From positions 1 to 53,593 of the forward strand of contig MEKR01000130.1 of assembly GCA_001767035.1 (NCBI GenBank): DNA of 53,593 nt. Direction: 5' to 3'. Position 1 is the first letter of the stretch. Each line of letters opens with the position of its first letter. The DNA comes from Acidobacteria bacterium RIFCSPLOWO2_02_FULL_61_28. Its GTDB lineage: Bacteria; Acidobacteriota; Terriglobia; 2-12-FULL-54-10. Of the stretch, positions 13,182 through 48,518 are shown one piece after another. Under the pieces are notes generated by a model. The model made no database searches. It worked only from the letters and a program-made list of their open reading frames with translations, and was not told where the DNA came from. The position numbers were made by a program, and so were the translations under genes.

Positions 13182-13595
13182 ATGAAGCGACTTGGAGTGT
13201 GCATTCTTCTTCTATTGATAACTGTGTCGGTGGCGCTGGCCCAATTGCCCACAGCCACGATTCTGGGAACAGTGCGCGATCCGTGTGCCTTCGCCATTCC
13301 TGCGGCGGGATTCTTGGGGACAGCGGGACGGAATATTCTGCGAACTCCTGGCTTTGCGAATTTGGATTTCTCGCTGGCGAAAGATACGCCGCTCGGCTTT
13401 CTCGGGGAGGGCGGGAAGCTGGAATTCCGCGCGGAATTCTTCAACATTCTGAACCGGGTCAATTTCGCGGTGCCGAATCGAACGGTCTTTGCCGCCAGCG
13501 CGGATGTGCAAGCGCCGCTGGCCACGGCCGGGCAAATTACCAGTACCGTGGGAACTTCACGGCAGATTCAATTAGCCCTCAAAATCCTGTTTTGA
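13182..13595 (+). pseudogene. TonB-dependent receptor relic: signal peptide plus first ~10 mature residues fused in frame to the last ~105 residues
   Basis: MKRLGVCILLLLITVSVALAQLPTATILGTVRDP | CAFAIPAAGFLGTAGRNILRTPGFANLDFS..SRQIQLALKILF. It aligns with both the N-terminus (AQLPTATILGVVRDPSG..) and the C-terminus (..FDPAAFAIQPAGFLGNAGRGILRGPGFANLDFS..SRQIQLALKVLF) of the 1067-aa paralog at 41843..45046. Confidence 0.8.
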
Positions 13596-13625
13596 GAGGG
13601 GCCATCCGTTCGGAGGAGCTAATCC

Positions 13626-14174
13626 GTGGCGCCGCGCATCCAACCAGTGGAAGAAGGCCGGGTTTCGCCGGAGGTCAAAGAATATTTTCGGGTCGCGGAG
13701 GAGCGCGGCGCGCCGAACGCGACCCTGCTCCGCATCCTTGCCCGGAACCCTGTCTCGCTTCGCATCTTTTACGATGCCTGGAACGATGCGTTTTATGGCG
13801 GACGCATTGAACACCTCTTGAAAGAGATCGTGCGCGTGCGCATGGCCGAGTTGCGGGGGTGCCATTACTGAGGGTCGGTGCGATCTGCTGCGGTGCAGCG
13901 GACGGCAGAAACGGTTGCCAAGCTCAAGGCTACGGCGAACAGCGACGATCCCATCTTCACCCCTCGGGAACGCAGCGCGCTCGAAATGGCTGCGATTTTC
14001 ACGGAACGCTATAAGGACTTCTCGGACGAAAACCTGCGGCGCTGGCGAGAGAACTTCACCGAGGAAGAGATCATCGAGTTGGCCGTCTTCATGGCCCTGG
14101 CCGATGGGTTCGGCAAGGTGGTCGAGATGCTGGGTCTCGGGCAAGCAGACCAGATCTGTCCGGTGGAACTCTAG
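13626..14174 (+). CDS. Carboxymuconolactone decarboxylase (CMD)/AhpD-like protein with in-frame TGA (13869-13871) at the second position of the CxxC motif; candidate selenoprotein, alternatively a nonsense pseudogene
   Basis: ORFs 13626..13871 and 13878..14174 share one frame. The joined product reads ..MAELRGCHY[TGA]GSVRSAAVQ...FTPRERSALEMAAIFTE.. and is a full-length CMD fold (~182 codons). SD GGAGGA at 13612-13617. Confidence 0.6.
13879..13907 (+). promoter_or_regulatory. SECIS-like stem-loop downstream of the in-frame TGA
   Basis: 8-bp stem TCTGCTGC/GCAGCGGA (13884-13891 / 13895-13902) with apical loop GGT (13892-13894). The stem is extended by four more pairs with single-nt bulges. The loop G lies 21 nt after the UGA. 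Confidence 0.45.
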
Positions 14175-14838: not shown

Positions 14839-15243
14839 GTGCGGGAAATCAAGACTCTGTTCCGAATCTGGCTGGCGGCTTTCGTTTTAGCAGGCCTTCA
14901 TTCCGGACCAGCCTCGCTACTGTTGGCGCAAGAGGCGCCTGCCATTAAGGGACCTGCTCCGAAGCAACCGGGCACCGATGAGAAACTGACGGCGCAGGAG
15001 TTACGGGGAGAAGGCACGTATTTTCAGTATTGTGCGCTCTGCCATGTGCCCCGAAAACAGAAGGCTGGAGCCCCTCCCACACTGGGCCCGGTTCACACTG
15101 GTGTGCTCAAGAACGCTCCGCCAGAGAAGGAACGAGCCGTTCGAGAGTTCATTCGGCAGGGCACCCAGAATATGCCGGGCTACCAATATATGTTAACGTC
15201 ACAGGAACTCGACGATCTGATTGCCTATTTGAAAACTCGGTAA
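14839..15243 (+). CDS. Class I c-type cytochrome (single CxxCH), secreted
   Basis: Signal peptide. Heme motif ..YCALCHVPRK.., distal ..NMPGYQY.. Met ligand region. GTG start with GGGAGG upstream. Confidence 0.85.
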   Translation: MREIKTLFRIWLAAFVLAGLHSGPASLLLAQEAPAIKGPAPKQPGTDEKLTAQELRGEGTYFQYCALCHVPRKQKAGAPPTLGPVHTGVLKNAPPEKERAVREFIRQGTQNMPGYQYMLTSQELDDLIAYLKTR

Positions 15244-15261: not shown

Positions 15262-17028
15262 ATGCCAAGACTTAGCAGGTTCTCGCAAGTCGCGCTGCTG
15301 GCTGTCCTGCTGGCAGGGTTTCCCGGCGCGCCGGATGTGTTTTCGCAATACGCCCCCGGCGGCAACGTATTAAAGGGGAGCGTGAAATCCTCGGATGGGA
15401 AACCGCTGGAAGGGGTGGCGGTTTCGATGCGAGGCGAGGGCAAGACCTTTACCACCACGGTGTTCACGGAGCGGGACGGGACGTTTGTTTCACCGCGGTT
15501 GGAGAAGAACAAATACCAGGTCTGGGCACAGGCCGTTGGGTTTGAGATGACTAAGTCCGAAGTGCAGATTACAGACCAGGCGGGACAAGCGGCCTTGTCA
15601 CTAAAACCGCTCCAGGACTACCACAAGCAGCTATCCGCCCAGGAATGGATGGCCAGTCTGCCGGAGTCCGATTCCCGAGACCTAAGGATGAAATCCGTCC
15701 TGATGAACAACTGCACGGGCTGCCATTACGTCGGGAGAATCCTGCAAAACCGGTTCGATTCGACCGGCTGGGCCGCGATGATCAAGCTCATGCAGAAAAC
15801 CGGCACCAATGGGGTCTATACGCCCAGCGTTAATCCCAACCCGATGATGGTGGCGTATCAGGAAGAACTGGCCGGCTTTTTGGCCAAGGCTCGCGGACCC
15901 GCTTCCCCTACGCTCACGCCCAAGCTGCTCCCGCGCCCCACGGGCGACGCTGCGAAGGTCGTGATTACCGAGTACGATCTGCCGCGGAATGATGTTTCGA
16001 GCACCATCCTCAAACACGATGGCACGGACTGGTCGGAAGGATTCTCCTCTCGCTGGGCCAGCCGCGCCCCGCATGATATTTGGGTCGGTCTCGATGGGAA
16101 TATCTATTGGGCCGACGATATGGTTCCCGAACAGACCGTTGGCAAGCTGGACCCTCGAACCGGCAAAGTGACTACGTACAAATTGCCGGACAAGGATGGC
16201 CATGCCGTTTCGACGCACAGCATTGTGGTGGATCATAAGGGGAACATGTGGCTGACCAACCAGACCGAAGGCACCCACCTGATGTTTAACCCCAAGACGG
16301 AAACCTTCACCAGGTTCCCTCGACCCGACTCCGTGCCCCAACGGGTGGGCGGCACGAATGCCGTGGATTCCAAAGGAAATCCGTGGGCGGTGGCGGCGGA
16401 TGGAGCGATCAAGTTGGATGTCGCAACGGGAAAGTATACTTTCTACAAGGCGATCCGTCCCGGCGCTACGTACGGAATCGCGGTGGATTCTGAGGACAAA
16501 GTGTGGGTTACGTTCCCCGGTATTGACACGCTCATGGTGGTGGACACCGCCGGTAATATCAGCGAGGTGGTCCTGCCTCCGTTGAAAACCGATTTGGCCA
16601 ACGACAAAGACCGCGAAGTGATGGCGAGCCAAAGACTCGCTGCCAACAGCGCCACTCCGCTTCAGAAGGGACCGCGCCGAATGTGGGCGGACCCAAAGGG
16701 TAACTACGTGTGGGTGGCCGAATACTTTGCCGATCAACTGGCGCGGATTGACATCCACACTAAAGAAGTTAAGGAATACCCTTTGCCGCACCGCTGGAGT
16801 CAGCCGTACGCCTTAAACGTGGACAAGAACCATAATGTTTGGATCAACATGCTGAATCGGGACGCCATCGCCAAGTTCGATCCGAAGACGGAACGGTTTA
16901 CAGAGTATCAACTGCCCACGCGGGGTACGGAAATCCGGCATATCGTACCCGACAATAGCACCGATCCGCCGACCATCTGGGTCCCGTACGATGGGGTGCT
17001 CAAAATCGCCCGGCTGCAATTCAGATGA
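15262..17028 (+). CDS. Secreted CarboxypepD_reg-like domain / single CxxCH heme-c motif / Vgb-like (COG4257-type) beta-propeller protein, paralog 1
   Basis: Signal peptide. G.V.SSDGKPLEGVAVSM beta-sandwich. NNCTGCHYVG. Repeated blades (..DGNIYWADD.., ..KGNMWLTNQ.., ..DKVWVTFPG.., ..NHNVWINML..). Lies 19 nt after the cytochrome c gene. Confidence 0.85.
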   Translation: MPRLSRFSQVALLAVLLAGFPGAPDVFSQYAPGGNVLKGSVKSSDGKPLEGVAVSMRGEGKTFTTTVFTERDGTFVSPRLEKNKYQVWAQAVGFEMTKSEVQITDQAGQAALSLKPLQDYHKQLSAQEWMASLPESDSRDLRMKSVLMNNCTGCHYVGRILQNRFDSTGWAAMIKLMQKTGTNGVYTPSVNPNPMMVAYQEELAGFLAKARGPASPTLTPKLLPRPTGDAAKVVITEYDLPRNDVSSTILKHDGTDWSEGFSSRWASRAPHDIWVGLDGNIYWADDMVPEQTVGKLDPRTGKVTTYKLPDKDGHAVSTHSIVVDHKGNMWLTNQTEGTHLMFNPKTETFTRFPRPDSVPQRVGGTNAVDSKGNPWAVAADGAIKLDVATGKYTFYKAIRPGATYGIAVDSEDKVWVTFPGIDTLMVVDTAGNISEVVLPPLKTDLANDKDREVMASQRLAANSATPLQKGPRRMWADPKGNYVWVAEYFADQLARIDIHTKEVKEYPLPHRWSQPYALNVDKNHNVWINMLNRDAIAKFDPKTERFTEYQLPTRGTEIRHIVPDNSTDPPTIWVPYDGVLKIARLQFR

Positions 17029-25378: not shown

Positions 25379-27652
25379 GTGACGAAACCTGTTTTGCGTC
25401 CGCGCACTCTTCTCACTCCTGACTCCTGGCTTCCACTTTCCGTTCGGCGGGAAGGCGGCAAGATCTGGAGCCACATCCGGCAAAAATGGCTTGTCGAAAC
25501 GCCTGAGGAGCGCGTGCGGCATGCCTACGTCGTTATGCTCCACAACGAATACGGCTTTTCCCTGGACCAGATGGACGAAGAGTTGAGTCCGCTGGCGGGA
25601 CGCGGATCCGCACGCGCGCGTGCCGACATAGTCGTGTGGCGAACGGTCCAGGACAAGGCTGACAGCAAGACCCCACTGATCGTGATTGAATGCAAGTCCG
25701 ATAACGTAACGATCAAAGCGGCGGATTACGCCCAAGGTGAAGCTTACGCCCTCTACTGCAATGCTCCATTCTTCGTCACGCACAACAACCGCGAGACGCG
25801 GTACTGGCGCGTCAAGAAGGACCGGATGCCGGGGGAGATCGATGAGATCGAGAATATCCCGCACGCTGACGCAAGCGACAAGGATATTCGAGAGCTAATC
25901 GAAAAACTGAAGACCTTCAAGGAAGACGAGTTCGCAGATCTGCTCCACTCCTGCCACAACGTAATCCGCAACCGCGAGCACTTGGACCCGGCGGCTGCGT
26001 TCGACGAAATTGCCAAAGTCCTGTTCGTCAAGGTGTGGGTGGAACGAGAAATGAAGGCGAAAAAGAGGCGCGTGAACCTGTTCACCGCCGACTACCTGGA
26101 CGAACAGCTAGGCACGCACCCCCTCAATGAACTGTTCCAGCAAACCAAGGAAGCCTTTGCCGATGATCGCATATTCGGGAATGACGACCGCATCAACCTG
26201 AAACTGGCGACGGGACGGGAAATCGTTCGGTTGCTGGAGCGCTATAATCTTTCCGATACCAGCGAAGATGTCAAAGGCATCGCGTTTGAACGTTTCCTGG
26301 GCAAGACCTTCCGAGGTGAGATCGGTCAATTTTTCACGCCGCGAACCATTGTTGAATTCATGGTCCGCATGATGGCCCCTAAGGAAGGCGACGTGGTTTG
26401 CGACCCGGCGAGCGGATCGGGCGGCTTCTTGATCCGTTTCTTCGAACTGGTCCGCGAATCCATCTTGGCCGAGGTGGACCGCGAGTACCAAGGTTTTGTG
26501 GCCGAACTGGACAAGAAGAAGCTATCGGAATCCAAGCGGGCCGAACTGCTGCGCGAGAAATATGCCGAACTCCAGGCGACCATCGACCAGCGGAAACGCG
26601 ATTCGCGGTTATGGAAGCTGGCCAACCGCTGCATATACGGCTGCGACGCCAACGACCGCATGGCCCGCACGTCAAAAATGAACATGATCATGCACGGCGA
26701 CGGGCATGGCGGGGTTCACCACCACAACGGCTTCATCAACGTCAACGGCATCTTTGAAGGCCGATTCGACATTCTCCTGACCAACCCGCCGTTCGGCGCG
26801 AACGTCGAACCGTCGGACCATATCACCGACACCGACGTAAAGACGAGCGATGACGAGTACCGCCGCTATGCTGAAACGTATGGTCAACTCTACAAGGAGG
26901 CGCATGGCCGCGTGAACGCTGCGAAGGGAAAACCAATCGCGTCCGTTTTTGACCTGCCGAGGCGGGGCGGTGATGGAAAGAAACTAGGCAAGGTCAAGAC
27001 GGAAATTTTGTTTATCGAACGCTGCCTGGCGTTGCTCAAGCCGGGTGGCCGAATGGGAATCGTGTTGCCAGAGGGCATCTTCAATAACCCGTCGTTGGGA
27101 TATGTCCGGGAGTTCTGCGAAGACCGTGCCCGCATTCTGGCCGTTGTAAGCCTTCCTCAAGAAACGTTCTATTCGTCTGGCGCGTCAGTTAAGGCATCGC
27201 TTCTGTTCTTGGGGAAATTCACCAGCAAGGAGCAAGCCGATTTTGAGAAGAAACGCGATGCGGCCAAAGCGGAAGTGGAAGCCAAGTACGCCGACGAAAC
27301 CGCAGCGGAAACGGCACGATTGGAAACTGAAATCGGAGCGGCCAAAAAAGCCCAGGACGCAAAACGTCGGAAGAAGGCGCAGTACGAGCTTGTCAACTAC
27401 CTGGCCCGCATCGCGGAAACGAAAACCCGTGAAGTCCGTGCCGTGCTCAAAGAGCGGTTTGACTACCCGATCTTTCTCTACGAAGCCGAGAAGGTCGGCA
27501 TTACGGCCACTGGTGAGCCGGATACGAACGAACTTTACACCAACTCAAACATGCCGGCGGGGATCACCCCTGAAGATACCTGTCTGGAGCTTTTTCGGCG
27601 ATTCAGGAAGAAGCCGGATGCCGTTGCCTCGCCGGTTAGTGTTGGGAGGTGA
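25379..27652 (+). CDS. Fusion protein: N-terminal HsdR_N-type PD-(D/E)xK nuclease domain plus gamma-class N6-adenine DNA methyltransferase (HsdM-like); RM subunit of a BcgI-like (Type IIB) or HsdR-less Type I-like system
   Basis: ..ARADIVVW..(20 aa)..PLIVIECKSD (D..ExK). MTase motifs GQFFTPR, DPASGSGGFL, LTNPPFG. Long coiled-coil C-terminal region. Confidence 0.85.
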   Translation: MTKPVLRPRTLLTPDSWLPLSVRREGGKIWSHIRQKWLVETPEERVRHAYVVMLHNEYGFSLDQMDEELSPLAGRGSARARADIVVWRTVQDKADSKTPLIVIECKSDNVTIKAADYAQGEAYALYCNAPFFVTHNNRETRYWRVKKDRMPGEIDEIENIPHADASDKDIRELIEKLKTFKEDEFADLLHSCHNVIRNREHLDPAAAFDEIAKVLFVKVWVEREMKAKKRRVNLFTADYLDEQLGTHPLNELFQQTKEAFADDRIFGNDDRINLKLATGREIVRLLERYNLSDTSEDVKGIAFERFLGKTFRGEIGQFFTPRTIVEFMVRMMAPKEGDVVCDPASGSGGFLIRFFELVRESILAEVDREYQGFVAELDKKKLSESKRAELLREKYAELQATIDQRKRDSRLWKLANRCIYGCDANDRMARTSKMNMIMHGDGHGGVHHHNGFINVNGIFEGRFDILLTNPPFGANVEPSDHITDTDVKTSDDEYRRYAETYGQLYKEAHGRVNAAKGKPIASVFDLPRRGGDGKKLGKVKTEILFIERCLALLKPGGRMGIVLPEGIFNNPSLGYVREFCEDRARILAVVSLPQETFYSSGASVKASLLFLGKFTSKEQADFEKKRDAAKAEVEAKYADETAAETARLETEIGAAKKAQDAKRRKKAQYELVNYLARIAETKTREVRAVLKERFDYPIFLYEAEKVGITATGEPDTNELYTNSNMPAGITPEDTCLELFRRFRKKPDAVASPVSVGR

Positions 27653-27655
27653 GTA

Positions 27656-29047
27656 ATGAGCATCGGGGCTGTAGCATCACCTCACGCGTCCGTTGTTTGG
27701 TTCCGTGACCTTTACCGCTGGAGCGTTTCTTCATTCGTCTCCACTGGTTGGCGCTGGCCAGCGGAGGCAATCCGTCCTCTCTCGGCGGCCTTATCGCGAA
27801 AGAGCATTGGCGTTGACTGTTCGAAGACTCCATCCGGGGCTATTCGGCTTGTTACGCTTCATTTCGATGGAGAAATCGAACTGCGCGATGCCGATGCAGC
27901 CGATAGTTTCAAGGGCCGGTTATTTTTCGCCGATCCCGGCGACGTAATTTATTCCAAGATCGACGTTCGCAATGGCGCTATCGGCATCATTGCCAAAGAT
28001 TTGGGTAGAGTTTGCGTCAGTAGCGAATACCCCGTTTATGCTGTCGACTCGAATACGGCCGACGCCCACTATATCAAGCTGGTCTTTCGGACTGACGTTT
28101 TCCGTCGCAAGATCAACAGCATGATTAGCGGTGCGAGCGGGAGGAAACGCGTGCAACCATCGGACCTTGAATCAGTCGAAATCCCCCTGCCGCCGGTGCC
28201 CGTACAACGCACCATCGTGGCACTGTGGGAAGCGGAGCGGAAGGCGGCGGCGGGCACGCAAGCCAAGATCGAAGAGCTTGAACGCAACATTGAAGCCCGC
28301 TTTCTTGCCGACCTCGGCTTGAAGGCCCCCACAAAAGCCAGGTTGCCCAAAGCCTTCGGCGTGTGGTGGAAAAACCTCGTGCGCTGGTCTGTCACGTTTA
28401 ATCAGCTCGCGAGTGTGGCCGCCGACATTAGCGGCGGCAAGTATCCGCTTACGACCTTGGGTCACGTCGGAACCGTGTCTTACGGAATTCAGAAATCCCC
28501 GGCCAATCGACCCGGCCAACATCCGCGTCCGTATCTGCGCGTTGCCAACGTGCAACGCGGTGAATTAGACCTGCGCGAGATCAAGTACATCGACGTGCCA
28601 GATTCAGAACTGCCCAGCTTGTTGCTTGAACCAGGCGACTTGGTTGTTTGCGAAGGGAACAGCGCTGACCTTGTAGGCCGACCGGCAATATGGCGAGGCG
28701 AAATCCCCGATTGCGTCCACCAGAACCATATTCTCAAGGTACGCGTAGATCGGGTACAAGCGATGTCCGGATACCTGTTGGAGTACATGAACAGCGCGCC
28801 CGCTCGTAACCACTTCCGGGCGCGTGCAAAATTCACTACGAACCTTGCATCCATCAACAGTAACGATTTGCGAGAACTGCCATTGCCGTTACCACCGCTG
28901 GAAACCCAGAGAAAGATTGTTGAACGAATTGCAAATCGACGCGCCGAGATCGCCAACCTGCGGGCTGACGCGAAAGCCCGCGCCAACGCGGCCAAGGCCG
29001 AGGTCGAAGCCATGATCCTGGGTACAAAGCCGGTGGAAGGAGCGTGA
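27656..29047 (+). CDS. hsdS: HsdS-like specificity subunit with two target-recognition domains
   Basis: Two TRDs, each followed by a conserved helix (..IPLPPVPVQRTIVALWEAE.. and ..LPLPLPPLETQRKIVERIANRRAEI..). The start lies 4 nt after the stop of the upstream gene. Confidence 0.9.
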   Translation: MSIGAVASPHASVVWFRDLYRWSVSSFVSTGWRWPAEAIRPLSAALSRKSIGVDCSKTPSGAIRLVTLHFDGEIELRDADAADSFKGRLFFADPGDVIYSKIDVRNGAIGIIAKDLGRVCVSSEYPVYAVDSNTADAHYIKLVFRTDVFRRKINSMISGASGRKRVQPSDLESVEIPLPPVPVQRTIVALWEAERKAAAGTQAKIEELERNIEARFLADLGLKAPTKARLPKAFGVWWKNLVRWSVTFNQLASVAADISGGKYPLTTLGHVGTVSYGIQKSPANRPGQHPRPYLRVANVQRGELDLREIKYIDVPDSELPSLLLEPGDLVVCEGNSADLVGRPAIWRGEIPDCVHQNHILKVRVDRVQAMSGYLLEYMNSAPARNHFRARAKFTTNLASINSNDLRELPLPLPPLETQRKIVERIANRRAEIANLRADAKARANAAKAEVEAMILGTKPVEGA

Positions 29048-31430: not shown

Positions 31431-33128
31431 ATGTCAGGGCATAGCAATCCGGGAAAGGGAAATCGGAGGAAGGCTGTTCTGATGATGGCTCTGGCGATCA
31501 TTGCGTCCAGCCGGTTGCCATTAGAAGCTCAAAACACCAGCGTCACCGGCGTGGTAAAAAGCGCGGCGGGAGAGCCCGTGTCGGGCGCATTGGTCAAAGT
31601 GAGCAGCCAAGAGGAGCGGATTGAATTCATGGTGGTCACGCAGGCACAAGGCCGCTACAGCACTCCCAATCTTCTTCCGGGAAAGTATACGATCCAGGCT
31701 TTTGGAGGCACTCATCAGAGTCCGTCTGCGGACCCGATCGAGCTCCGCAGGGGCCGGCAGGGGAAGACGGATGTTGTATTGAGCGCCCTGCTGCAGATTT
31801 CTCCGCGAGAGAAACGGATGACGGACGCGGCAGAATACGAGAAGTTGATGCCAGTGTCGGAAGATGGAATCCAACATGTCATCGCGGGCATTTGTTCTGA
31901 GTGTCATTCATTGGAGTGGATTCTTTCCGCCCGGAAGACTCCGGAGAAGTGGCAAGAAACTCTGGATAGGATGGGAGTCAAAGTAATCGGGAATCGGCGG
32001 GCTCTCAGCCCGCTGGTGAGGCCGCAACGGGAACACGAAGACCCCTTGATGATGAAATATTTCTCGAAGCATTTCACCCCGGGTGTCCCTCAGGACCCTC
32101 GGGTTGTGAAGCAGTGGCTCCTTCGCAAAGGGGGCCCTTCCCACCCCAACAGAAACCTGCCCCCAACGTTGCTTACGGGTGCGGCCGCCAAATACTTCGC
32201 GATGGAGTTCTCTCTGCCGGCCGGCTCTGCGCCCCATGACATCGCGGTTGATTCCCAGGGGATAGCCTGGGTCAGTGAAAGAAACCCAGGCATGCTTGGC
32301 CGGTTTGATCCCAATTCGCTTGCATATGGCCGCATGGCATCTCCTCCTGGGGCGTATCCCGAGTTCCAATTGAACGCGGTTGCGGTTGATCCCCAAGACC
32401 AGATTTGGTGCGTGGATGACGGTCCCAACGCTCGCATTCTACAGTACGATCCGAAAAGCCGGGAATTCAACAGCTATCCGATTCCCGAGTATCGTTGGCC
32501 GGTTCCTGAGATCGGTTGGGCCCGGATCCAAACGCTCGGTTTCTTGAAAGGGCAGGTCTGGGCAGCGGGAAAAACGTCCGACCGGATCATTCGGCTGGAC
32601 CCTAAAACCCGAAGGTTTACCCACTATCCTCTGCCCCGGATTTCGGTGCCTTTTGGATTGGCGATCAGCAGCGGCATGGTTTGGTACTCGGCACAAGTCG
32701 GCAACGCTGTCATGAAACTGGATCCAAGCACCAGCAGACTTACACCCTTTATCGTGCCCACCCTGAGATCCGGCCTGAGAGGGATGGCGGCCGATGGAGA
32801 AGGGAATCTCTGGGTAGCGGCACTGGAATCAGGCAAGCTGGTAAACGTGGATCGCACGGGTAATATTACGGAATACTCTCCCCCCACGGAAGACCCCGGT
32901 CCTTTTGCGGTCGCTGTGGACGCGAAACGGAACCTGATTTGGTTTAGCGAAGTTTTCTCGGACAGGATTGCCCGGTTTGATCCCAGCACCAGCACATTTG
33001 TGGAGTTTCCGCACCCGAGCGCGGATTCCGATGTGCGAAGGATCGAGGTAGATCGCAGTCATCCGAATCGGGTGTGGTGGTCCAGCCCTCGCAACGACAA
33101 GATCGGGTACATGGAAGTGATGGATTGA
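31431..33128 (+). CDS. CarboxypepD_reg-like / CxxCH / Vgb-like beta-propeller protein, paralog 2
   Basis: Signal peptide. VTGVVKSAAGEPVSGALVKV. GICSECHSLEW. Propeller blades (..QGIAWVSERN.., ..DQIWCVDDG.., ..GNLWVAALE.., ..RNLIWFSEVF..). Confidence 0.85.
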   Translation: MSGHSNPGKGNRRKAVLMMALAIIASSRLPLEAQNTSVTGVVKSAAGEPVSGALVKVSSQEERIEFMVVTQAQGRYSTPNLLPGKYTIQAFGGTHQSPSADPIELRRGRQGKTDVVLSALLQISPREKRMTDAAEYEKLMPVSEDGIQHVIAGICSECHSLEWILSARKTPEKWQETLDRMGVKVIGNRRALSPLVRPQREHEDPLMMKYFSKHFTPGVPQDPRVVKQWLLRKGGPSHPNRNLPPTLLTGAAAKYFAMEFSLPAGSAPHDIAVDSQGIAWVSERNPGMLGRFDPNSLAYGRMASPPGAYPEFQLNAVAVDPQDQIWCVDDGPNARILQYDPKSREFNSYPIPEYRWPVPEIGWARIQTLGFLKGQVWAAGKTSDRIIRLDPKTRRFTHYPLPRISVPFGLAISSGMVWYSAQVGNAVMKLDPSTSRLTPFIVPTLRSGLRGMAADGEGNLWVAALESGKLVNVDRTGNITEYSPPTEDPGPFAVAVDAKRNLIWFSEVFSDRIARFDPSTSTFVEFPHPSADSDVRRIEVDRSHPNRVWWSSPRNDKIGYMEVMD

Positions 33129-39817: not shown

Positions 39818-41554
39818 TCAGTCAGCGATGGGGGAAAGACCGCCCCTCTCCGGCGGACGGTAGGTCTTCAACGCATTCCCCTTGGGCTTGAAATTCACTC
39901 CCACAATGGTCTGGATGCCCCGCGACCCAAACCAGACGCTGCCGTCCTTGTCAATCTCCACTTTCGGCACGCTCCAACGCACTTGCGGCAGGGGATAGTA
40001 GGTGAACTTCTTCGTTGCCACGTCAAACCGGATGAGCGAATTGTAGGTGTCGTCGGTCACCCAGATGCTGCCGCGATTATCCGGCCACGCTTCGTAAAAG
40101 CCCCCATGCTTGTATTGCGGCTGGTATTCGATGATCTGCGCGGTGTCCGGGTCGAGATAGCCCAGCTTCCCGATGGAATATTCCGTGAACCAGACCTTGC
40201 CTTTGTTGTCCACGCCGAGCCGCCGGGTTCCGGAAGGCTGCGAGGGAGTGGGATACTGCGTCCACTTCTCGGTGGCCGGATTAAACCGGAACACAATGTG
40301 CTTGGGCCGCCCGACGGTCCAGATGTTGTCCTGCGGGTCCACGGCCAGCCCGTAGGTCTTGGCGCCCTCGACCGGCAACCCCCAATCGGTGATTTTCCGC
40401 GTCTTGGCGTCCAACTTCCCGATGGCGTTGCCGGCGTTCATCCCGTACCACACATTGTCCTTGGAATCCACCACCACCTGGAGCAAGGAACCTTGCCTGG
40501 GAAGCTCGTGCCGGATGGACTTTCCGGTCGCCGGGTCGAGCTCTCCCAGCTTGCCGTCCGCAATCTCGGCCCAGTAGACGCGCCCTTTGCTGTCCACGGC
40601 GTTTCCATGGATGAAGACGTTGCGCTCCGAAGGAACCTTGAACGTCTTCCACCGCTCGCTGAAACTGGTGGCGCGCGGATTCAACTGCGCCATCGCATTG
40701 ATCCCCGAACCGCCGAACCAGATGGTCCCGTCCAAGGGCGAAACATAGGGATCGTGCAGCCGGTGGCCGCTCGCGTATTCGTCGCGATCCGGGCGCTTCA
40801 GCCGTTCCGGGGTGCGGTAAACCGGCCCCAGATCAATTTCGTACTCGATGTAAAGCGCGTCCGCCAGGGCATCCTCGTCGGGCACGACCTCGTCGCGTTT
40901 GATGTCCCGGTTGGGGGCGTTGGGGCCGAAATGGGTCGCCAAATACTTATAGATCGGCTCCATCACGGTTTCGGCCGGCCACGGTTCGAGCGCGCTGGTC
41001 CTGCCGTTCCAAGTGGGAGCGGTCCGCATCTTCTCGGTCGCGGCCTTCCATCCCGCTTCGTCGAGCTTCCTGCGGTGGAGAAAGAACGGATGACAACCCA
41101 TGCACGCGACTTCCACCTCTTTGCGGCCCGGCCCCGGCGGATAGAGCGTGTCATAGTCCACCAGTTCCGCCGTCTGCCGCGGCCGCTCCAAAGCCGTCAG
41201 CGCCAAGTCCACCCGCTGCGTTTCGCCGGCGCGGAGTTGGGTGACCTCGACGGGAGACTCGTAGCCCTGTTGCAGCGCCCAAATCTCGTAATCGCCCGCC
41301 GGCAAATCCACAAACCGATAGCGGCCCGCCTTGGTAAAGGTGGTGTACATGATCCGGTTTACCGTATCGCGGGCCTTTACGCGGAATCCCCTCACTTCGC
41401 CGCGATCCGCCGTGATCGTGCCGATAACCCTTCCTCCGGCTGCAAGCAGCGGAGTCGCCCCGGTGAAGATGATCACGGTCAGAATGCCCAAAAGAACTGC
41501 GCTCAGGTGGAAAAACCTGCGCGACTGGAAAGAAGACCTTTCTTGGATGCTCAT
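39818..41554 (-). CDS. CarboxypepD_reg-like / CxxCH / Vgb-like beta-propeller protein, paralog 3
   Basis: Hydrophobic N-terminus. VIGTITADRGEVRGFRVKA. VACMGCHPFF. Blades (..DGTIWFGGSG.., ..GRVYWAEIAD.., ..DNVWYGMNAG.., ..DNIWTVGRP.., ..GKVWFTEYS.., ..GSIWVTDDT.., ..GSVWFGSRG..). Confidence 0.85.
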   Translation of the reverse strand: MSIQERSSFQSRRFFHLSAVLLGILTVIIFTGATPLLAAGGRVIGTITADRGEVRGFRVKARDTVNRIMYTTFTKAGRYRFVDLPAGDYEIWALQQGYESPVEVTQLRAGETQRVDLALTALERPRQTAELVDYDTLYPPGPGRKEVEVACMGCHPFFLHRRKLDEAGWKAATEKMRTAPTWNGRTSALEPWPAETVMEPIYKYLATHFGPNAPNRDIKRDEVVPDEDALADALYIEYEIDLGPVYRTPERLKRPDRDEYASGHRLHDPYVSPLDGTIWFGGSGINAMAQLNPRATSFSERWKTFKVPSERNVFIHGNAVDSKGRVYWAEIADGKLGELDPATGKSIRHELPRQGSLLQVVVDSKDNVWYGMNAGNAIGKLDAKTRKITDWGLPVEGAKTYGLAVDPQDNIWTVGRPKHIVFRFNPATEKWTQYPTPSQPSGTRRLGVDNKGKVWFTEYSIGKLGYLDPDTAQIIEYQPQYKHGGFYEAWPDNRGSIWVTDDTYNSLIRFDVATKKFTYYPLPQVRWSVPKVEIDKDGSVWFGSRGIQTIVGVNFKPKGNALKTYRPPERGGLSPIAD

Positions 41555-41624: not shown

Positions 41625-41843
41625 CACCATTTTCAGGGTTGGTGTAGAGTACGTGGGGACGTCAGGGCACGACTTCAGTCGTGCCGGAGGGCGTGTCAAA
41701 TCAACTCCTCTTCCTTACGGCTTCAGCCGCTGAGGGACGTACCTCAGGGGCTAAAGCCCAACCGAAACGACGCGGCTTTTCGGCATGGCTGAAGCCATGC
41801 CCTGACGACTTTCATCCCCTAAATATCAACGGTGAAAATGCTC
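41625..41843. mobile_element. Family-B MITE copy (219 bp)
   Basis: TA at 41623-41624 and 41844-41845. Its last base plus the TA form the stop codon of the TonB receptor gene. Confidence 0.85.
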
Positions 41844-44800
41844 TAAAACAAGACTTTCAGGGCCAACTGGATTTGCCGCGAGGTCGTCGCCGTGCCGGTG
41901 ATTCTTCCGGCCGTTGCCAGCGGGGCTTCCCCGTCGCGTTGCGCCGAGTAGACATTCGTGCTGGGGATGGCAAAGTTCACGCGGTTCGGCAGATTGAAGA
42001 ACTCCGCGCGGAACTCGAGCTTTCCGCTCTCGCCCAGGAAGCGCAGCGCCGTATCTTTCGCCACGGAGAAATCCAGGTTGGCAAATCCTGGACCGCGCAA
42101 AATGCCGCGACCCGCGTTCCCCAGAAATCCTGCCGGCTGAATGGCGAACGCCGCCGGATCGAAGTAGCGATTCGGGCCGCCCAGTATAACTTTGTCATGG
42201 TTGTATCCCGCCGCCAGATCCGGACGGTTCTCGCCGCCGAACTTGCGGGCGCGGTCGCTGGCAATGGTGGGGCTGAACGGATACCCGCCCTGCAGCGAGA
42301 GGATGCCGCTCATCCACCAGCCATTCACAACCTTTCCCAGGACTCCTCCGGAGGAAACCAGTTGCGGGAAGCGGTAAATCGTGTTGAGACGCCAGCTATG
42401 AGTAATGTCAAACGCCGCCGGTCCCCGGTCGAACTGCCGGTGGGTGGAAGTTACCGGCGAGCCGCCCCGCTCCGCGGGCAACTGGCCCTGCGTTTCGTCA
42501 ATCAGCTTCGACCAGGTGTAGGAGCTTTGGAATTGCAACCCCCGGCTCAAGCGTTTCTGCAACACGAATTGTAACGAGTTATAGAAGGAGTTTCCTCCCG
42601 CCGTGACGAGCGTGATATTCCCCCAGTTGGGATTGGTCCGCGCGGGTCGCTGCCCGGTGGGGACGGCGGGCCAGAACAGCCTCCCGTCGGGAAGCACCTG
42701 CGGGACCGTCGGGTTTCCTTCCTTGACCTGCAACAGGTTGATGCCGCGCGAACCGGCGTAGGCCAGCGTGACCGCCATGTTGAACGGCAACTGGCGCTCG
42801 ACCGTGAGGTTGTATTGCAGCATGTGGGGCTGCTGCATCAAGTAGTCAATCACGCGAATCTCTCTTCCGGCGGACTCCGGCGGGAAGGTGAGGGGAATCC
42901 CCGGCAGCAGGAATGCCGTGGGGTTCTGCACCTGGCTGCTGGAGGAGAATGGCGGCATGGCGATCGTCCCTTGCACGAACGCGCTGCCCAGGTTCCCGAT
43001 GTCATAGAGCAGCCCAAAGCCGCCCCGGACGGCGGTCTTCCCGTTGCCTCTCACGTCCCAGGCAAAGCCGACTCGCGGACTCCAGTTCCGGGTCGTGGGG
43101 TTGGTCGGAAACATGGGACCCCGCGTGGTGTTGGAGTCGTGCTGGATGTCGCGCAGCGCCGCGTTGAGCCCGCGAACTTCCACCGGGATGGTGAGAAATT
43201 CATACCGCAAACCGAGATTCAACGTGAGGCCGGAATTCACCCGCAGGTCGTCCTGGAGATAAAAACCGGCGCTGGTCGAGAAGAAGGTGCGATCCAGGAT
43301 CGAACCCGGCGTAATGGCGTTGTAACTGGTCACGCGGCCCTGCAAGAACGAGGCCAGGTTGGGGAACGTGACGCTGCCCCGGTTGCCGGTGCCCGATTGG
43401 GTGTACTGCTGGAAGCGGTTGATCAGCGTTCCGAACTTCAGGGAGTGCCGGCCCCGCGTGTAAAAAACGTCATCGCTCCAGGTGAAGAGATTCTGCTTCT
43501 TGACGCTGGGCGTGTTGCCCTCCGGCCCGATCCCGGCGAGTCCCCCGATGCTGATGCCTCCAAGCTCCTTGCCCGGCACGAACGAATACTGGGGACCGCT
43601 CAGCCCGGAAGGGGAATCATTGTTCACCCTCGTCCGGACGTAGGAAAACCGGAAGGTGTTCAGCATGGTGGGAGAAAAGACGTGGTTCTCCGACAAGTTC
43701 GCGTACTGTCCGCGGCTGGTCAGGACGCTCCTGAACTGCGGGAAGGCGAGCGGGGACAAGCGGTCCGCATCGTGCGCGGTGTAGCGCACAAAGAAGCTGT
43801 CGTTGCCGGAAAGGGTCTGGTCCACGCGGACCTGCCCGAAGTCTTCGCGGGTCGGCTGACTCGCCGGGAGGGTGAACTGGTTGTTGGGCAGGTTGGGATC
43901 GGGATAGAGCGCCAGCCAGGGCGCGATCAGCGGCGCAATCGTTACCGACGTCACCGTCCCCGCCGGCGGATTCAGTTGCGGACAGGCCGTGCTGGTGATT
44001 GTCGCGCCGGCTGGCCCGCGGCACGAGGCGGACATCACGTTGGCGACGGAGGTCACCCCCAAGCGGTCCCGCAGCCCTTCGTACACCAGATGGTAGAAGG
44101 TCTTGTCTTTCCGGACCGGCCCGCCGACCGAGGCCCCGAAGCTGTTTCGCTTAAAGGGAGGCAAGCGGAAATCCGGCGGCGTCGAAGCGGACTTGAGGTC
44201 GAAGAAGTTCCGGGCGTCGAGCGCGCTGTTGCGCAGGTACTCAAACAGGGAACCGTGCAGATTGTTGGTCCCGTTCTTGCTCACGACCACCATCTGGCTG
44301 CCCATGGTGAGGCCGTACTCGGCGCTGAACGAGTTGGTGATGATCCGATACTCCCGGATCCCTTCCACGCCCAGCGTCGAGCCGGTGGCGGAGGACGAAG
44401 TCGCGCCCGAGAAATCCCGGATGGGCGCTCCGTCCAGCAGATAGTTGTTGGAGCGCAGCGGCGCCCCATTGCTGCTGTACCAGGTTCCGACCGTGGAGGT
44501 CGAACGGCTCATGTTTCGGTGTTGCTGGATGCCCGGCTGGAGCAGGGTCAGGTCCACGTAGTTGCGGCCGTTGAGCGGCAGATCGGCGATCCGCTGCTCA
44601 TCCACCAGGCCCCCTAACGACCCGCTGGTCGTGTTCACCAGCGGAGCCTCGGCGGTGACGGCAACGGTTTGCTCCACCGCGCCCACCTGGAGCGTAAAGT
44701 TCACGACGGCTTCCTGGGCCACCGCGAGCGTCAGCCCGCTGCGCACTTCCGACTGGAACCCCGGATGCTCCACGCGGACCTCGTAGCTCCCGACCGGCAA

Positions 44801-45046
44801 CCCCGCAAAGCGATAGGAGCCGTCGGCCCCCGCCACGGTCTTGCGAGTCTGCCCCGTCTCGACATTCCGGGCCGTCAAATTGACCTCGGGCATCACGGCC
44901 CCGCTGGGGTCCCGGACAACGCCCAGAATCGTGGCGGTGGGCAACTGCGCCCAGGCCTGCCCCGGACCAGTGAACAAACCGAACACAACGACAACCGGAA
45001 TCATCCGCTTCAGAGGAATCATCCGCTTCAGAAAGGATCGTCGCAT
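41843..45046 (-). CDS. TonB-dependent outer-membrane receptor with carboxypeptidase-regulatory-like N-terminal domain (full length)
   Basis: Signal peptide ..GPGQAWAQ. LPTATILGVVRDPSGAVMPEVNLTARN. Plug ..LPLNGRNYVDLTLLQPGI.. C-terminal ..SRQIQLALKVLF. The start was moved to ATG 45046 because GGGAG lies 8-12 nt upstream of it. Confidence 0.92.
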   Translation of the reverse strand: MRRSFLKRMIPLKRMIPVVVVFGLFTGPGQAWAQLPTATILGVVRDPSGAVMPEVNLTARNVETGQTRKTVAGADGSYRFAGLPVGSYEVRVEHPGFQSEVRSGLTLAVAQEAVVNFTLQVGAVEQTVAVTAEAPLVNTTSGSLGGLVDEQRIADLPLNGRNYVDLTLLQPGIQQHRNMSRSTSTVGTWYSSNGAPLRSNNYLLDGAPIRDFSGATSSSATGSTLGVEGIREYRIITNSFSAEYGLTMGSQMVVVSKNGTNNLHGSLFEYLRNSALDARNFFDLKSASTPPDFRLPPFKRNSFGASVGGPVRKDKTFYHLVYEGLRDRLGVTSVANVMSASCRGPAGATITSTACPQLNPPAGTVTSVTIAPLIAPWLALYPDPNLPNNQFTLPASQPTREDFGQVRVDQTLSGNDSFFVRYTAHDADRLSPLAFPQFRSVLTSRGQYANLSENHVFSPTMLNTFRFSYVRTRVNNDSPSGLSGPQYSFVPGKELGGISIGGLAGIGPEGNTPSVKKQNLFTWSDDVFYTRGRHSLKFGTLINRFQQYTQSGTGNRGSVTFPNLASFLQGRVTSYNAITPGSILDRTFFSTSAGFYLQDDLRVNSGLTLNLGLRYEFLTIPVEVRGLNAALRDIQHDSNTTRGPMFPTNPTTRNWSPRVGFAWDVRGNGKTAVRGGFGLLYDIGNLGSAFVQGTIAMPPFSSSSQVQNPTAFLLPGIPLTFPPESAGREIRVIDYLMQQPHMLQYNLTVERQLPFNMAVTLAYAGSRGINLLQVKEGNPTVPQVLPDGRLFWPAVPTGQRPARTNPNWGNITLVTAGGNSFYNSLQFVLQKRLSRGLQFQSSYTWSKLIDETQGQLPAERGGSPVTSTHRQFDRGPAAFDITHSWRLNTIYRFPQLVSSGGVLGKVVNGWWMSGILSLQGGYPFSPTIASDRARKFGGENRPDLAAGYNHDKVILGGPNRYFDPAAFAIQPAGFLGNAGRGILRGPGFANLDFSVAKDTALRFLGESGKLEFRAEFFNLPNRVNFAIPSTNVYSAQRDGEAPLATAGRITGTATTSRQIQLALKVLF

Positions 45047-45486
45047 GGTCAAAGCTCCCATTCCCCGCCTGTTTTATTTTGATTGTGCCGACCCCGCTGT
45101 CCCTTCCTATCCGGAAAACACTGGCAACGGGACCCTTATCCTCCCAATGGAAATGCAGGGAGCCGCTTTCTGTTGCAGCACGAATTCCCGCTGGGGCTCC
45201 CAACGGCCCACACTATACACCCAGGGAGGGGTTCCCGCGCACAATTTTTCTTTGGCTGCATCCGCAATCTGAATCTGCTCACCAGGAAGCTCCTCGATAG
45301 GATGGCGCAGGAACCGTTGGAGCCTTTCTCCCGTTGCTATAGATCGTCCGGGAAAAGCCCCGGAGGGGCGTTAGACTCTGGCCCACGGCGCAAGCCGTGG
45401 GAAGGGGCGACAGACATCAACCCCTCGGGCGCACTACACACCAATTGTGAAAATGGTGTAGGTGCTCTACAGCGATTGAAAAGATA

Positions 45487-45563
45487 TGGCGCGCCTGAGA
45501 GGATTCGAACCTCCGACCTTTGGTTCCGGAGACCAACGCTCTATCCAACTGAGCTACAGGCGC
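45487..45563 (-). tRNA. tRNA-Arg (anticodon CCG), CCA encoded
   Basis: Minus strand reads GCGCCTG-TA-GCTC-AGTTGGATA-GAGC-G-TTGGT-CTCCGGA-ACCAA-AGGTC-GGAGG-TTCGAAT-CCTCT-CAGGCGC-G-CCA. Canonical cloverleaf of 77 nt. Confidence 0.95.
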
Positions 45564-45821: not shown

Positions 45822-48518
45822 TCAAATTCTTTCTGCCAACTCTCGCGCTTCGGTTACAACCTTGTAATCAACTCCTAACGCATCCTTGAAGTGGCGCTCA
45901 CCGCAATGAATCTTGCGCCGTTCGTCCGGGCGAAGGTCGGTCTTCCAATCCTTTCCTTTTGTTTCGCGAACCAGATAAAGCAAAGGCTTGCCCGTAGGCT
46001 CCCCATATTCGTCTCGGTCTTCCATAACGATGGCCCAGTCCGGGTTGTACTCCCCAACGGGCGTTGGCACGACGAACCAGCGCGGAAGTTTCAGATACAA
46101 TCTGACTGCGCCCATCTTATCGAGTCCATTCACGAATTCGCGCTCGATCTCCGATTCGTAAACCACATGGTCATATACCGAGTGATCCGCCGGAACCATA
46201 TAGTCCATCCAGCTTTCGATTTCCGCATCTAGCTGCACCATTTCATACCACTCGTTGATTTTCTCGTACTGAATACCGCTGACCAAGTGCTCAGCGAGCT
46301 TATCCTTTATGACACGCACAGCCACGGTCGCAAATTCGCTTGGATTGTGGGTCGCGGCAATTCTGTTCTTGCTGCGCCGGAACACCTCCAACAGCGTTGT
46401 CCGCGTCAGTCGGACTGGCGGTGACGTATGTTCCATGAGGTGTGCCATCATTTCGACCAGGTTCGGCAAAGGGTAGCGCCCGGCGAGGTCTAAAACAGTT
46501 TTCGCCCCGCTCATTGGCAGCGCTTCGAACGTATCTTCCCGGCGAACCTTTAATTCCACCTTCATGATAGTGATTCGTGGGTGGCGGATTTCTTCGCGGT
46601 CGAGTTCTTCGACAACGTCAGCAAGCAGCTTTTCTGTATCGATTTTCACTGCATAGCGCGTCTTGTGCTTGATACGTTCCCACAATTCCTTGAACTCCGG
46701 CTTAAGGACATATTCCTTCCGCAGCTTGGCCACACCTCTTTGCCTGGCGTTCGCAGGCTTGGGGGGCAGACCCTCTTTGCCGTAATCTTCCTCGATCTCT
46801 GCCTGCAACCGCTCAACGTATTGCTCGTAACTTTGATTCGCCACCACGGTAAGAACGTTGACCTTCTCCTCTCGGACGCGCTCGCCTTGCTGGTCCACGG
46901 CTAGACGCATCCCTCGGCCAATCTCCTGCCGTTTTTTCATTTCGGAAGCGGTCTGATTGAGCGTGCAGATTTGAAAGACGTTGGGGTTATCCCATCCCTC
47001 CCGCAAGGCCGAATGTGAAAAAATGAACGCCCTCGGCTCGTCGAACGAAAGCAGGCGCTCTTTGTCTCTCATAATCAAGTCGTAGGCCGCTTCATCCTCT
47101 GCGGATTTCCCGGAAGTCGAATCCCTGACCTCCATGATTCCACCCCTGTGACGCTTCTCGGCGAAGTAAGCAGCCTGAACCTGCTCCGGGTCCACGTCTT
47201 TCCATCCGGCATGTTTTTTCTTGGCGGCGTTGAATGTTTTCGCGAAAAGAAGCCGGATGATTCCGTCCGCCCGACTGTAGTTGTCCACCCGGTCAATAAA
47301 AAAGAGGGAGAGCACTTTGATCTCGCTATCTTTCAGCCGCTCTTGTTTCCGAAAGTGCTCTTCGATGGTGTACTGTATCTGCGCCTCAAAGATGGCTTCC
47401 TTATCAGCCCCGGAGGATTCCCCGACCTTCAACTCCACCCCGTTGGCAAAGCGGATATAACCGCCTCCATAACTGATTTCTTCAACCTCAAAGCCCGCAT
47501 ATTCCTTTCGCTCCGTCTTTTCCTCCAGAGAATCGTCCCGCCGGATCGTGACAATCTTCTCCTTGATCGTTCCGTCTTTCATTAGCTTATGGACAGCGAC
47601 CCGTGCGGTCAGGGTCTTCTTTTCGGCTTTGATGTCATCTAACCGTAGAAAAACCTGATTGACATCGTCTGCTTTCACTACGGATGCGACCTCGATTCGC
47701 TTGACCAAGCCCTGCCGGTAGGCTTCGAAGGGGGTCAGCCGATACACAAGGTTGTAGGGGTTTCTGTGGGTCGCGCTGTAACGCAGAGCCAACAAGGGAT
47801 CGAGCGCGGAAAGCGCTTTCACCCGCAGCTCGCTTTCCATGTTTTGTGGCTCATCGAGGATGAGTACCGGCCGCGCCGCCTGGACAAGATGAATCGGGGT
47901 TTCGCCTTGAAGCCGATCCGTCGTCTGGCGGATCACGTTCGATGCCTTATTGAAGGAATCAATCGTCATCACCATCATCTCGATGCTGTCGGAGAGCGCG
48001 AACTGCCGCACCTGGGAGAGATTCTCCGAGTCATAGACGTAGTAGCGATATGGCACATTGTCGTAAAGCTCGCGTAGGTGGGTTTCGGTTATTTTCAGAG
48101 TCTTGAGCACGCCTTCGCGTATCGCCACGGAAGGAACCACGATAATGAATTTGCGCAGCCCGTAGCGGCGATATAGTTCAAGCGCCGTCCGCAGGTACAC
48201 GTAAGTCTTTCCTGTCCCGGTCTCCATTTCGACAGAGAAATTTGGGAAACGAGCGGTTTTAGTTCCCGATGTCGTTTCAATTACTTCCTCGATGCAAGCC
48301 AGCGTGTCATCGGGCGGCGCGATTCCGCTCTTTGCTTGAACGGCTTGCAGATTTTTGAGGAGATCGGCTTCTTCCAGATCGAGCCGATTGGCCACTGCTG
48401 CAAACCCAAGGCGAAAGGTCAGGTCCGCCTCGATGCGTGGCTGTCCTTCGAACAGGTCTGCGACCGCCTCGATTGCGTGGATTTGGTATTCCTGTTTTCC
48501 GTCAAATCGGAATTGCAT
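45822..48518 (-). CDS. res: Type III restriction enzyme Res subunit (SF2 helicase plus C-terminal PD-(D/E)xK nuclease)
   Basis: MQFRFDGKQEYQIHAIEAVADLFEGQ.. ..METGTGKTYVY.. (Walker A). ..ILDEPQNM.. (DEPQ box). C-terminal ..YNPDWAIV..LYLVRETKG.. Confidence 0.92.
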   Translation of the reverse strand: MQFRFDGKQEYQIHAIEAVADLFEGQPRIEADLTFRLGFAAVANRLDLEEADLLKNLQAVQAKSGIAPPDDTLACIEEVIETTSGTKTARFPNFSVEMETGTGKTYVYLRTALELYRRYGLRKFIIVVPSVAIREGVLKTLKITETHLRELYDNVPYRYYVYDSENLSQVRQFALSDSIEMMVMTIDSFNKASNVIRQTTDRLQGETPIHLVQAARPVLILDEPQNMESELRVKALSALDPLLALRYSATHRNPYNLVYRLTPFEAYRQGLVKRIEVASVVKADDVNQVFLRLDDIKAEKKTLTARVAVHKLMKDGTIKEKIVTIRRDDSLEEKTERKEYAGFEVEEISYGGGYIRFANGVELKVGESSGADKEAIFEAQIQYTIEEHFRKQERLKDSEIKVLSLFFIDRVDNYSRADGIIRLLFAKTFNAAKKKHAGWKDVDPEQVQAAYFAEKRHRGGIMEVRDSTSGKSAEDEAAYDLIMRDKERLLSFDEPRAFIFSHSALREGWDNPNVFQICTLNQTASEMKKRQEIGRGMRLAVDQQGERVREEKVNVLTVVANQSYEQYVERLQAEIEEDYGKEGLPPKPANARQRGVAKLRKEYVLKPEFKELWERIKHKTRYAVKIDTEKLLADVVEELDREEIRHPRITIMKVELKVRREDTFEALPMSGAKTVLDLAGRYPLPNLVEMMAHLMEHTSPPVRLTRTTLLEVFRRSKNRIAATHNPSEFATVAVRVIKDKLAEHLVSGIQYEKINEWYEMVQLDAEIESWMDYMVPADHSVYDHVVYESEIEREFVNGLDKMGAVRLYLKLPRWFVVPTPVGEYNPDWAIVMEDRDEYGEPTGKPLLYLVRETKGKDWKTDLRPDERRKIHCGERHFKDALGVDYKVVTEARELAERI

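Follow-up and report, generated by a model that had tools for sequence, protein, structure and literature searches.

An AhpD-like gene with an in-frame UGA in an acidobacterial contig, very probably encoding a selenoprotein of the CMD superfamily

The interrupted gene and its surroundings

The window (the whole stretch of DNA analyzed here, 53,593 nucleotides of contig MEKR01000130.1, Acidobacteria bacterium RIFCSPLOWO2_02_FULL_61_28) corresponds to most of a 62,456-bp metagenome contig (ENA ERZ27254842 k141_942546), and a second assembly holds the same region. Its forward strand carries a gene of 182 codons whose sole interruption is a TGA triplet: 81 codons are open up to the TGA, and the same frame then runs on for 100 more codons to a TAG (Table 1). 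The protein context of the interruption is MAELRGCHY-TGA-GSVRS. The coordinates given in the original prediction, which had joined two neighbouring open reading frames (ORF) across this TGA, all proved correct, from the Shine-Dalgarno-like site and the GTG start to the TGA and the final stop. So did its description of the joined product as a carboxymuconolactone decarboxylase (CMD)/AhpD-like protein of normal length: with Cys placed at the TGA, the product scores 33 bits against the Pfam CMD model (PF02627; gathering threshold 23) over residues 46–122, and its length is normal for the family. Among 32 relatives checked, the codon aligned to the GTG start is ATG in 29 and GTG in one, and most of the 32 have a GGAGG-like site upstream of it. 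Scans for promoter and terminator consensus sequences around the gene gave results at chance level.

Public gene calls cut the gene into two nameless ORFs of 81 and 98 amino acids in the source contig, and likewise in relatives. An antisense "shadow" ORF of 190 codons (13572–14144, minus strand) spans nearly the whole gene, and a gene caller facing the split sense frame could pick it instead.

Table 1. Features of the UGA-containing gene (positions in the window).
Feature	Coordinates	Strand	Remarks
Shine-Dalgarno-like GGAGGA	13612–13617	+	8-nt spacer to the GTG start; GGAGG-like site in most relatives
Predicted complete selenoprotein gene, AhpD-like/CMD fold	13626–14174	+	GTG start, 182 codons including Sec82, TAG stop at 14172–14174
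Glu67 codon, 12 residues before Cys79, Glu of E-x11-C-x-x-C	13824–13826	+	Invariant in alignments A1 and A2
Cys79 codon (TGC), first residue of C-x-x-U	13860–13862	+	Invariant in all relatives
In-frame UGA, very probably read as Sec82	13869–13871	+	TGA in 49 related loci; TGC in 31–35% identical homologues; structure alignment
100 codons after the UGA, probably translated and not a separate gene	13872–14171	+	pN well below pS against 40 relatives
Arg86 codon	13881–13883	+	Replaces the His of solved AhpD-like proteins
Putative SECIS hairpin inside the coding sequence	13884–13902	+	5' arm 13884–13891, loop GGU 13892–13894, 3' arm 13895–13902
Cys178 codon near the C terminus (DQxC)	14157–14159	+	Invariant in alignment A2

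Upstream of the gene lies a 137-codon remnant of a TonB-dependent receptor; downstream come a gap and a cytochrome c gene. The remnant (13182–13595, plus strand) is an internally deleted receptor lacking about 900 barrel residues; it matches, in one frame, residues 24–58 and then 968–1072 (74% identity) of a full-length paralogue at 41843–45061 on the minus strand. The window also encodes three paralogues with an N-terminal CarboxypepD_reg domain and a Vgb-lyase/SGL-like beta-propeller (15262–17028, 31431–33128 on the plus strand, and 39818–41554 on the minus strand), the first of which is preceded by a small cytochrome c gene (14839–15243). Type I restriction-modification methylase and specificity genes and a separate ResIII helicase with an endonuclease domain (25379–29047, plus strand, and 45822–48518, minus strand) lie among TonB-receptor, NHL-repeat and RND-efflux genes. 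An Acido-Lenti-1 sRNA (RF01687, 42.9 bits against a threshold of 37; 45356–45401, minus strand) is found beside a tRNA-Arg(CCG) (45487–45563, minus strand), and its presence fits an acidobacterial origin of the contig.

The neighbours differ among related loci. In three of them (L001, L011 and L069) the gene lies directly after an M24 creatinase/prolidase-type peptidase, and in L001 the gene, as called, starts before the peptidase gene has ended. Elsewhere it follows an acyl-CoA dehydrogenase (L061) or a 2-hydroxyacid dehydrogenase (L010), or precedes an aldehyde dehydrogenase (L052 and L055) or an amidohydrolase (L012). No such catabolic cluster surrounds the window gene.

Conservation of the TGA codon, the downstream frame and the hairpin

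Related loci were collected by scanning JGI metagenome contigs and one genome for each GTDB species. All 49 loci with at least 54% identity have TGA at the position of codon 82. They come from Acidobacteriota, Actinomycetota, Chloroflexota, Bacillota and other MAGs, in detail from Acidobacteriota (72–74% identity), Nitriliruptorales, Acidimicrobiia, two Thermoflexus MAGs, a Bacillota MAG, "ANGP1" and other unclassified bacteria. The TGA forms comprise 39 distinct sequences, so they are not assembly copies of a single one. More distant relatives, of 31–35% identity, have TGC at this site, within the motif C-G-Y-C-S-T-V-R-S; they belong to Alphaproteobacteria, Acidoferrum-type Acidobacteriota, a Flavobacteriales-labelled MAG and a haloarchaeon. 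Across orthologues the codon is TGA, or Cys in the distant relatives, and never encodes another residue. The TGA also aligns exactly with the second Cys of the CxxC in the solved structures 3c1l and PA0269. The original prediction had assigned the TGA to the second Cys of this redox motif and proposed an alignment of orthologues as a check; both the CGYC of the distant relatives and the structures agree with that assignment, and the alignment gave TGA or Cys throughout.

A word-indexed search of 5.8 billion proteins returned neither a close full-length relative nor a close Cys form. It did return two distant Cys forms and three N-terminal fragments, 63–75% identical, that end in C-x-Y. Each of these fragments ends at a TGA on its own contig, and where the contig continues, an ORF of 98 codons opens 6 nt later in the same frame. 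An exhaustive profile search identified 4,555 family members; in the best 150 cluster representatives (50%-identity clusters), four more proteins end exactly after CGY.

Extra stops or frameshifts in relatives, which the original prediction had listed as evidence against recoding, have not accumulated: in 40 relatives the downstream frame runs for 97–101 codons to its stop with no frameshift or additional stop. Compared with the window sequence, this half shows pN of 0.16–0.34 and pS of 0.52–0.81, and omega is about 0.10–0.39, against about 0.08–0.29 for the upstream half; these omega values are rough, with synonymous sites near saturation. The pattern points to purifying selection on the codons after the TGA, like that on the upstream half, and its direction is unambiguous. 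Separately, one locus in an Acidimicrobiia MAG (L038, DATKCZ010000023.1, 10001–10129) retains only the last 43 recognisable residues, with an in-frame stop (HFSD*EPIELG); it is probably a decayed copy, an example of a real pseudogene of the family.

The two ORFs called by automatic annotation in the window contig and in relatives, together with the GTG at 13878 where the second one appears to start, could be taken as two separate small genes of 81 and 98 amino acids whose products assemble into a split CMD protein. However, many relatives have GTC, GTT or GTA for the Val codon aligned to this GTG, so a restart codon is not conserved, and the codon lacks a preceding ribosome-binding site. Exactly one TGA and two sense codons lie between the halves in every case, without a change of frame, and the break would fall within the catalytic CxxC motif. 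We consider two genes at this locus to be exceedingly improbable, and treat the halves as one gene.

A hairpin, TCTGCTGC-GGT-GCAGCGGA, begins 12 nt past the TGA, and the first G of its loop lies 21 nt after the A of the UGA. The 8-bp stem and its GGT loop fold as originally predicted. The extension proposed below this stem, four further pairs with single-nucleotide bulges, came out differently: it consists of three pairs (13879–13881 with 13905–13907) across a 2x2 internal loop, and is absent from the consensus fold of the relatives. The 47 nt from the UGA onward fold at -18.2 kcal/mol (z = -2.2), and 5 of 200 dinucleotide shuffles fold as well.

Published criteria for bacterial SECIS elements (bSECIS; PMC13188914) call for an apical loop of 3–9 nt, an upper stem of 4–16 bp, a G in the first two loop positions, a distance of 16–37 nt from the UGA and an energy of -7.5 kcal/mol or lower. 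Using our own implementation of these rules, which serves as the SECIS prediction suggested originally, we found the window hairpin within every limit: its loop is GGU, with G in the first position and again in the second, the stem has 8 bp, the spacing is 20 nt and the bare stem-loop has an energy of -11.0 kcal/mol. By chance, 8.2% of the 1,422 TGA triplets in the window pass the same rules, and 3.2% do so at -10 kcal/mol or better. The evidence from the single hairpin is thus modest, and it is the comparative data that carry weight. Elsewhere in the window, no other in-frame TGA with a bSECIS hairpin and open flanking frames occurs in a plausible coding context. An Rfam scan of the whole window at gathering thresholds, and of positions 13800–13980 at E-values up to 10, gave no SECIS-type match; Rfam is not known to include a general model of bacterial SECIS elements, so this result is neutral.

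All 39 distinct Sec forms pass the bSECIS rules, and 2 of 19 Cys forms do. Over the 33 nt surrounding the hairpin, the mean energy is -13.2 kcal/mol (z -1.8) in the Sec forms and -7.8 kcal/mol (z +0.23) in the Cys forms (Mann-Whitney p ~2e-7, for sequences that are phylogenetically non-independent). The register of the helix differs across the clade, with partner columns that sum to 45, 47, 48 or 50, and the formal covariation test was for that reason restricted to the 21 sequences sharing the register of the window. Within this group 95.8% of the cells are paired, against 24–70% when the partners are slid by one to three columns; five of the eight pairs show compensatory changes, none of 500 shuffles reaches the observed covariation score, and the two loop Gs are invariant. 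RNAalifold returned the same helix as its consensus. Other members have a stem of 6–7 bp shifted by two to five columns, with loops such as CGUG or CGUGGC, and paired changes are seen in these registers too (for example GUUCUGC/GCAGAAC versus GCUCUGC/GCAGAGC). Sequence, register and encoded peptide (SAAVQR, SAEVQQ, SAVAEQ and others) have drifted, but the structure has been kept. TGA-bearing relatives, then, keep the hairpin, a point that the original prediction had proposed to check; they exchange its pairs in a compensatory manner, and Cys forms mostly do without it. The 39 natural variants, with shifting registers at one orthologous position, make a useful small data set on the tolerance of SelB.

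The original prediction had also named a simple nonsense pseudogene, a Cys-type CMD gene with a TGY-to-TGA mutation, as the alternative. One base change is enough to turn TGC or TGT into TGA, and a hairpin passing the bSECIS rules follows 8% of the TGA triplets of the window by chance. Yet the same TGA occurs in 49 loci of several phyla down to 54% identity, as 39 distinct sequences; the downstream frames of the relatives are intact and under selection; the hairpin covaries; and the databases searched contain no close Cys-form parent. Conservation of the TGA, downstream selection and covariation effectively refute this explanation, to which we give practically no weight. The same three lines of evidence, with a hairpin that Cys forms lack, support the selenoprotein interpretation put forward originally: positions 13626–14174 very probably encode one AhpD-like/CMD-family thiol-selenol oxidoreductase of 182 residues, in which the UGA at codon 82 would be decoded as selenocysteine.

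Decoding of the UGA

TGA ends 13 of the 23 confident genes of the window; among the relatives, roughly one copy of this gene in three also has TGA as its stop. A reassignment of the genetic code is ruled out by its use as a stop in those 13 genes, and since TGA is the usual stop elsewhere, the recoding of codon 82 depends on local context.

The hairpins that direct Sec insertion in Escherichia coli fdhF and fdnG also follow the UGA closely within the coding sequence, have G/U in their apical loops and a spacing that falls within 16–37 nt. The window element has no sequence similarity to them, and its shorter, perfect stem lacks the bulged U of fdhF. By analogy, we presume the SelB mechanism of these genes as the working model. 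SelB carrying Sec-tRNA(Sec) would bind the hairpin as the ribosome reaches the UGA and, competing with release factor 2, would bring the Sec-tRNA(Sec) to the A site; Sec would then be incorporated at the UGA, and translation would run on for 100 codons to the TAG. The Sec machinery is presumably present in the host genome.

Sequence data alone cannot tell Sec from Cys at a SECIS-dependent UGA. The codon could be recoded to another amino acid, either to Cys through a tRNA(Sec)-like tRNA(Cys) acting with SelB and the SECIS, or through an opal-suppressor "allo-tRNA": tRNA(Cys) of the SelC* type is known, as are acidobacterial allo-tRNAs with a possible nonsense-suppressor function (PMC5389517). 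The organisms in which selC* tRNAs have been found, however, are anaerobic Firmicutes, Thermodesulfobacteria, Nitrospirae and Proteobacteria, and Acidobacteria are not among them (PMC5389517). General suppression would conflict with TGA being the main stop codon. It is also hard to explain why a costly UGA and its hairpin would be kept across phyla for plain Cys, for which TGC would do. An amino acid other than Sec is accordingly a highly improbable product of this codon, and Sec remains the preferred reading.

ARAGORN predicted no tRNA-Sec, either in the window or in a set of 24 related loci. Neither the window, the remainder of the 62-kb contig nor about 820 kb of related loci yielded selA, selB, selD or tRNA-Sec. 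Outside the window, the contig has another 8.8 kb with HNH, caspase-TPR and TonB-receptor genes but without sel genes. With E. coli SelA, SelB and SelD as tblastn queries, the window and the full set of fetched loci (820 kb) yielded two weak matches. One is a SelB-like GTPase beside a tRNA-Thr in L018, most likely EF-Tu, and the other a 26% identical SelD-like match in a Cys-form locus; neither constitutes evidence of Sec machinery. Linkage between Sec genes and the genes they serve is rare; finding none in 62 kb is therefore expected and uninformative, and it leaves a small chance that the organism has lost the Sec trait. Selenoproteins have been documented in Acidobacteria, Actinobacteria and Chloroflexi (PMC1794560).

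Such a loss, if recent, would make the window copy an orphaned selenoprotein gene, stopping at its UGA and decaying. Compatible with this are the lack of any Sec machinery gene or tRNA-Sec on the contig, the adjoining remnant of the deleted TonB-dependent receptor as a sign of local decay, the absence from the window copy of the catabolic-operon context that many relatives have, and the fact that Sec-trait loss is common in bacteria (PMC1794560). The window copy itself, however, has an intact start, Shine-Dalgarno site, 8-bp GGU hairpin and set of 100 downstream codons, and against its nearest relatives non-synonymous change is low despite synonymous saturation; the missing sel genes, for their part, are what weak linkage to clients leads one to expect. 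We therefore regard an orphaned gene as quite improbable, although somewhat less so than decoding as another amino acid, and favour a functional selenoprotein gene.

Protein family, redox motif and possible function

Solved AhpD-like proteins match the joined product at E-values of about 1e-9 (3c1l, and PA0269 as 2o4d, 2ijc and 7xw1). A model of the Cys homologue P0004 (32% identical; pLDDT 66.6, medium confidence), used for the fold family only and not for residue geometry, has AhpD/CMD structures as all of its top matches in a PDB fold search. The best NCBIfam match is NF053654, with 59.2 bits against an equivalog cut-off of 310, in an alignment of nearly full length (residues 4–162 on profile positions 3–162 of 179); TIGR01926 gives 53.8 bits against a cut-off of 81.8. 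Since these scores lie below the specific cut-offs, the window protein is a relative and not a member of the NF053654 and TIGR01926 families, in a separate clade of the CMD superfamily.

The AhpD-type motif Glu-x11-Cys-x-x-Cys is present as E67-x11-C79-H-Y-U82, with Sec for the second Cys; the motif itself is established for Mycobacterium tuberculosis AhpD. Four residues after the second Cys, where classical AhpD has the His of the proton relay, the window protein has Arg86 (CHYUGSVR). Arg occupies this position throughout the Sec clade and in the Cys-form relatives (C-x-Y-[U/C]-x-x-V-R), and His is found in 3c1l and PA0269. Given this replacement, peroxidase activity of the window protein is not assured. 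The third Cys, Cys178, is invariant in the Sec clade, and the Cys-form relatives have a counterpart in a WE(E/D)AC stretch; it may act as a resolving or partner thiol. The redox centre would be C79-x-x-U82 in place of the C-x-x-C of the family, preceded by the conserved Glu67, and the product would most likely cycle between selenol/thiol and selenenylsulfide forms and reduce a peroxide, a disulfide or another electrophilic compound.

AhpD-like (COG2128/TIGR01926) and CMD-like (PF02627) CxxU proteins are recognised selenoprotein families, listed in current reviews and in BSepDB (PMC1088965, PMC2398784, PMC13188914, PMC13326102), which agrees with what the original prediction had said of them. 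AhpD-like CxxU selenoproteins have been known since 2005, first from the Sargasso Sea metagenome, and are abundant in GOS samples (PMC1088965, PMC2398784, PMC13188914). The COG2128/TIGR01926 "peroxidase-related enzyme" selenoproteins share with the window protein the fold family, Sec for the second Cys, widespread Cys homologues and a SECIS hairpin with G in a small apical loop right after the UGA. They differ in that the window protein lies below the TIGR01926 cut-off, in its separate clade, and has Arg for the motif His; and unlike the marine-plankton AhpD-like selenoproteins, its clade comes from soil-type Acidobacteriota and other terrestrial MAG lineages. The CMD-like PF02627 CxxU family ("AhpD-like 2" of GOS) has in common with it a score above the CMD threshold and the CxxU motif, a likeness drawn from the published description of that family (e.g. 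MBW1767730.1); this family is more abundant in non-marine samples (PMC2398784). The "YciW-related (seleno)protein" family NF053654 (GroundWater_YciW), matched over nearly its full length, also has selenoprotein members, and the window protein is only a distant relative of it. The AhpD of M. tuberculosis and of Pseudomonas aeruginosa (PA0269; 7xw1, 2o4d) has the all-helical AhpD fold and an aligned Glu-x11-Cys-x-x-Cys; in contrast to them, the window protein has Sec for the second Cys and Arg for His (CHYUGSVR versus CAYCVNMH), and its gene has no AhpC or lipoamide partner genes nearby. Within a group of CxxU selenoproteins that is already known, the window gene adds a separate clade that would work in the same way.

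The variable gene context among relatives fixes no function, and suggests that peroxide detoxification is not the sole possibility. The clade may be an obligately Sec-containing branch of AhpD/CMD, spread over at least four phyla and with Arg in place of His, that carries out a selenium-dependent non-peroxide reaction in a degradation pathway. This proposal is tentative and on balance doubtful; it draws on the absence of any Cys form at 54% identity or above, on the change from His to Arg and on the catabolic operon settings. Such a reaction could be, for example, a reductive or decarboxylative degradation step, by analogy with Bmp8, a CMD-fold debrominase that uses Cys.

The finding is real but ordinary for a specialist, and it leaves the understanding of Sec decoding unchanged; its main value lies in correcting a systematic mis-annotation. 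The gene and at least 49 relatives stand in public assemblies as split, nameless ORFs of about 81 and 98 residues. Because of this splitting, and because the proteins score below the curated selenoprotein models, the selenoproteomes of soil bacteria, Acidobacteriota included, would be under-counted for this clade. For the organism itself, the gene marks the host as a probable user of selenocysteine.
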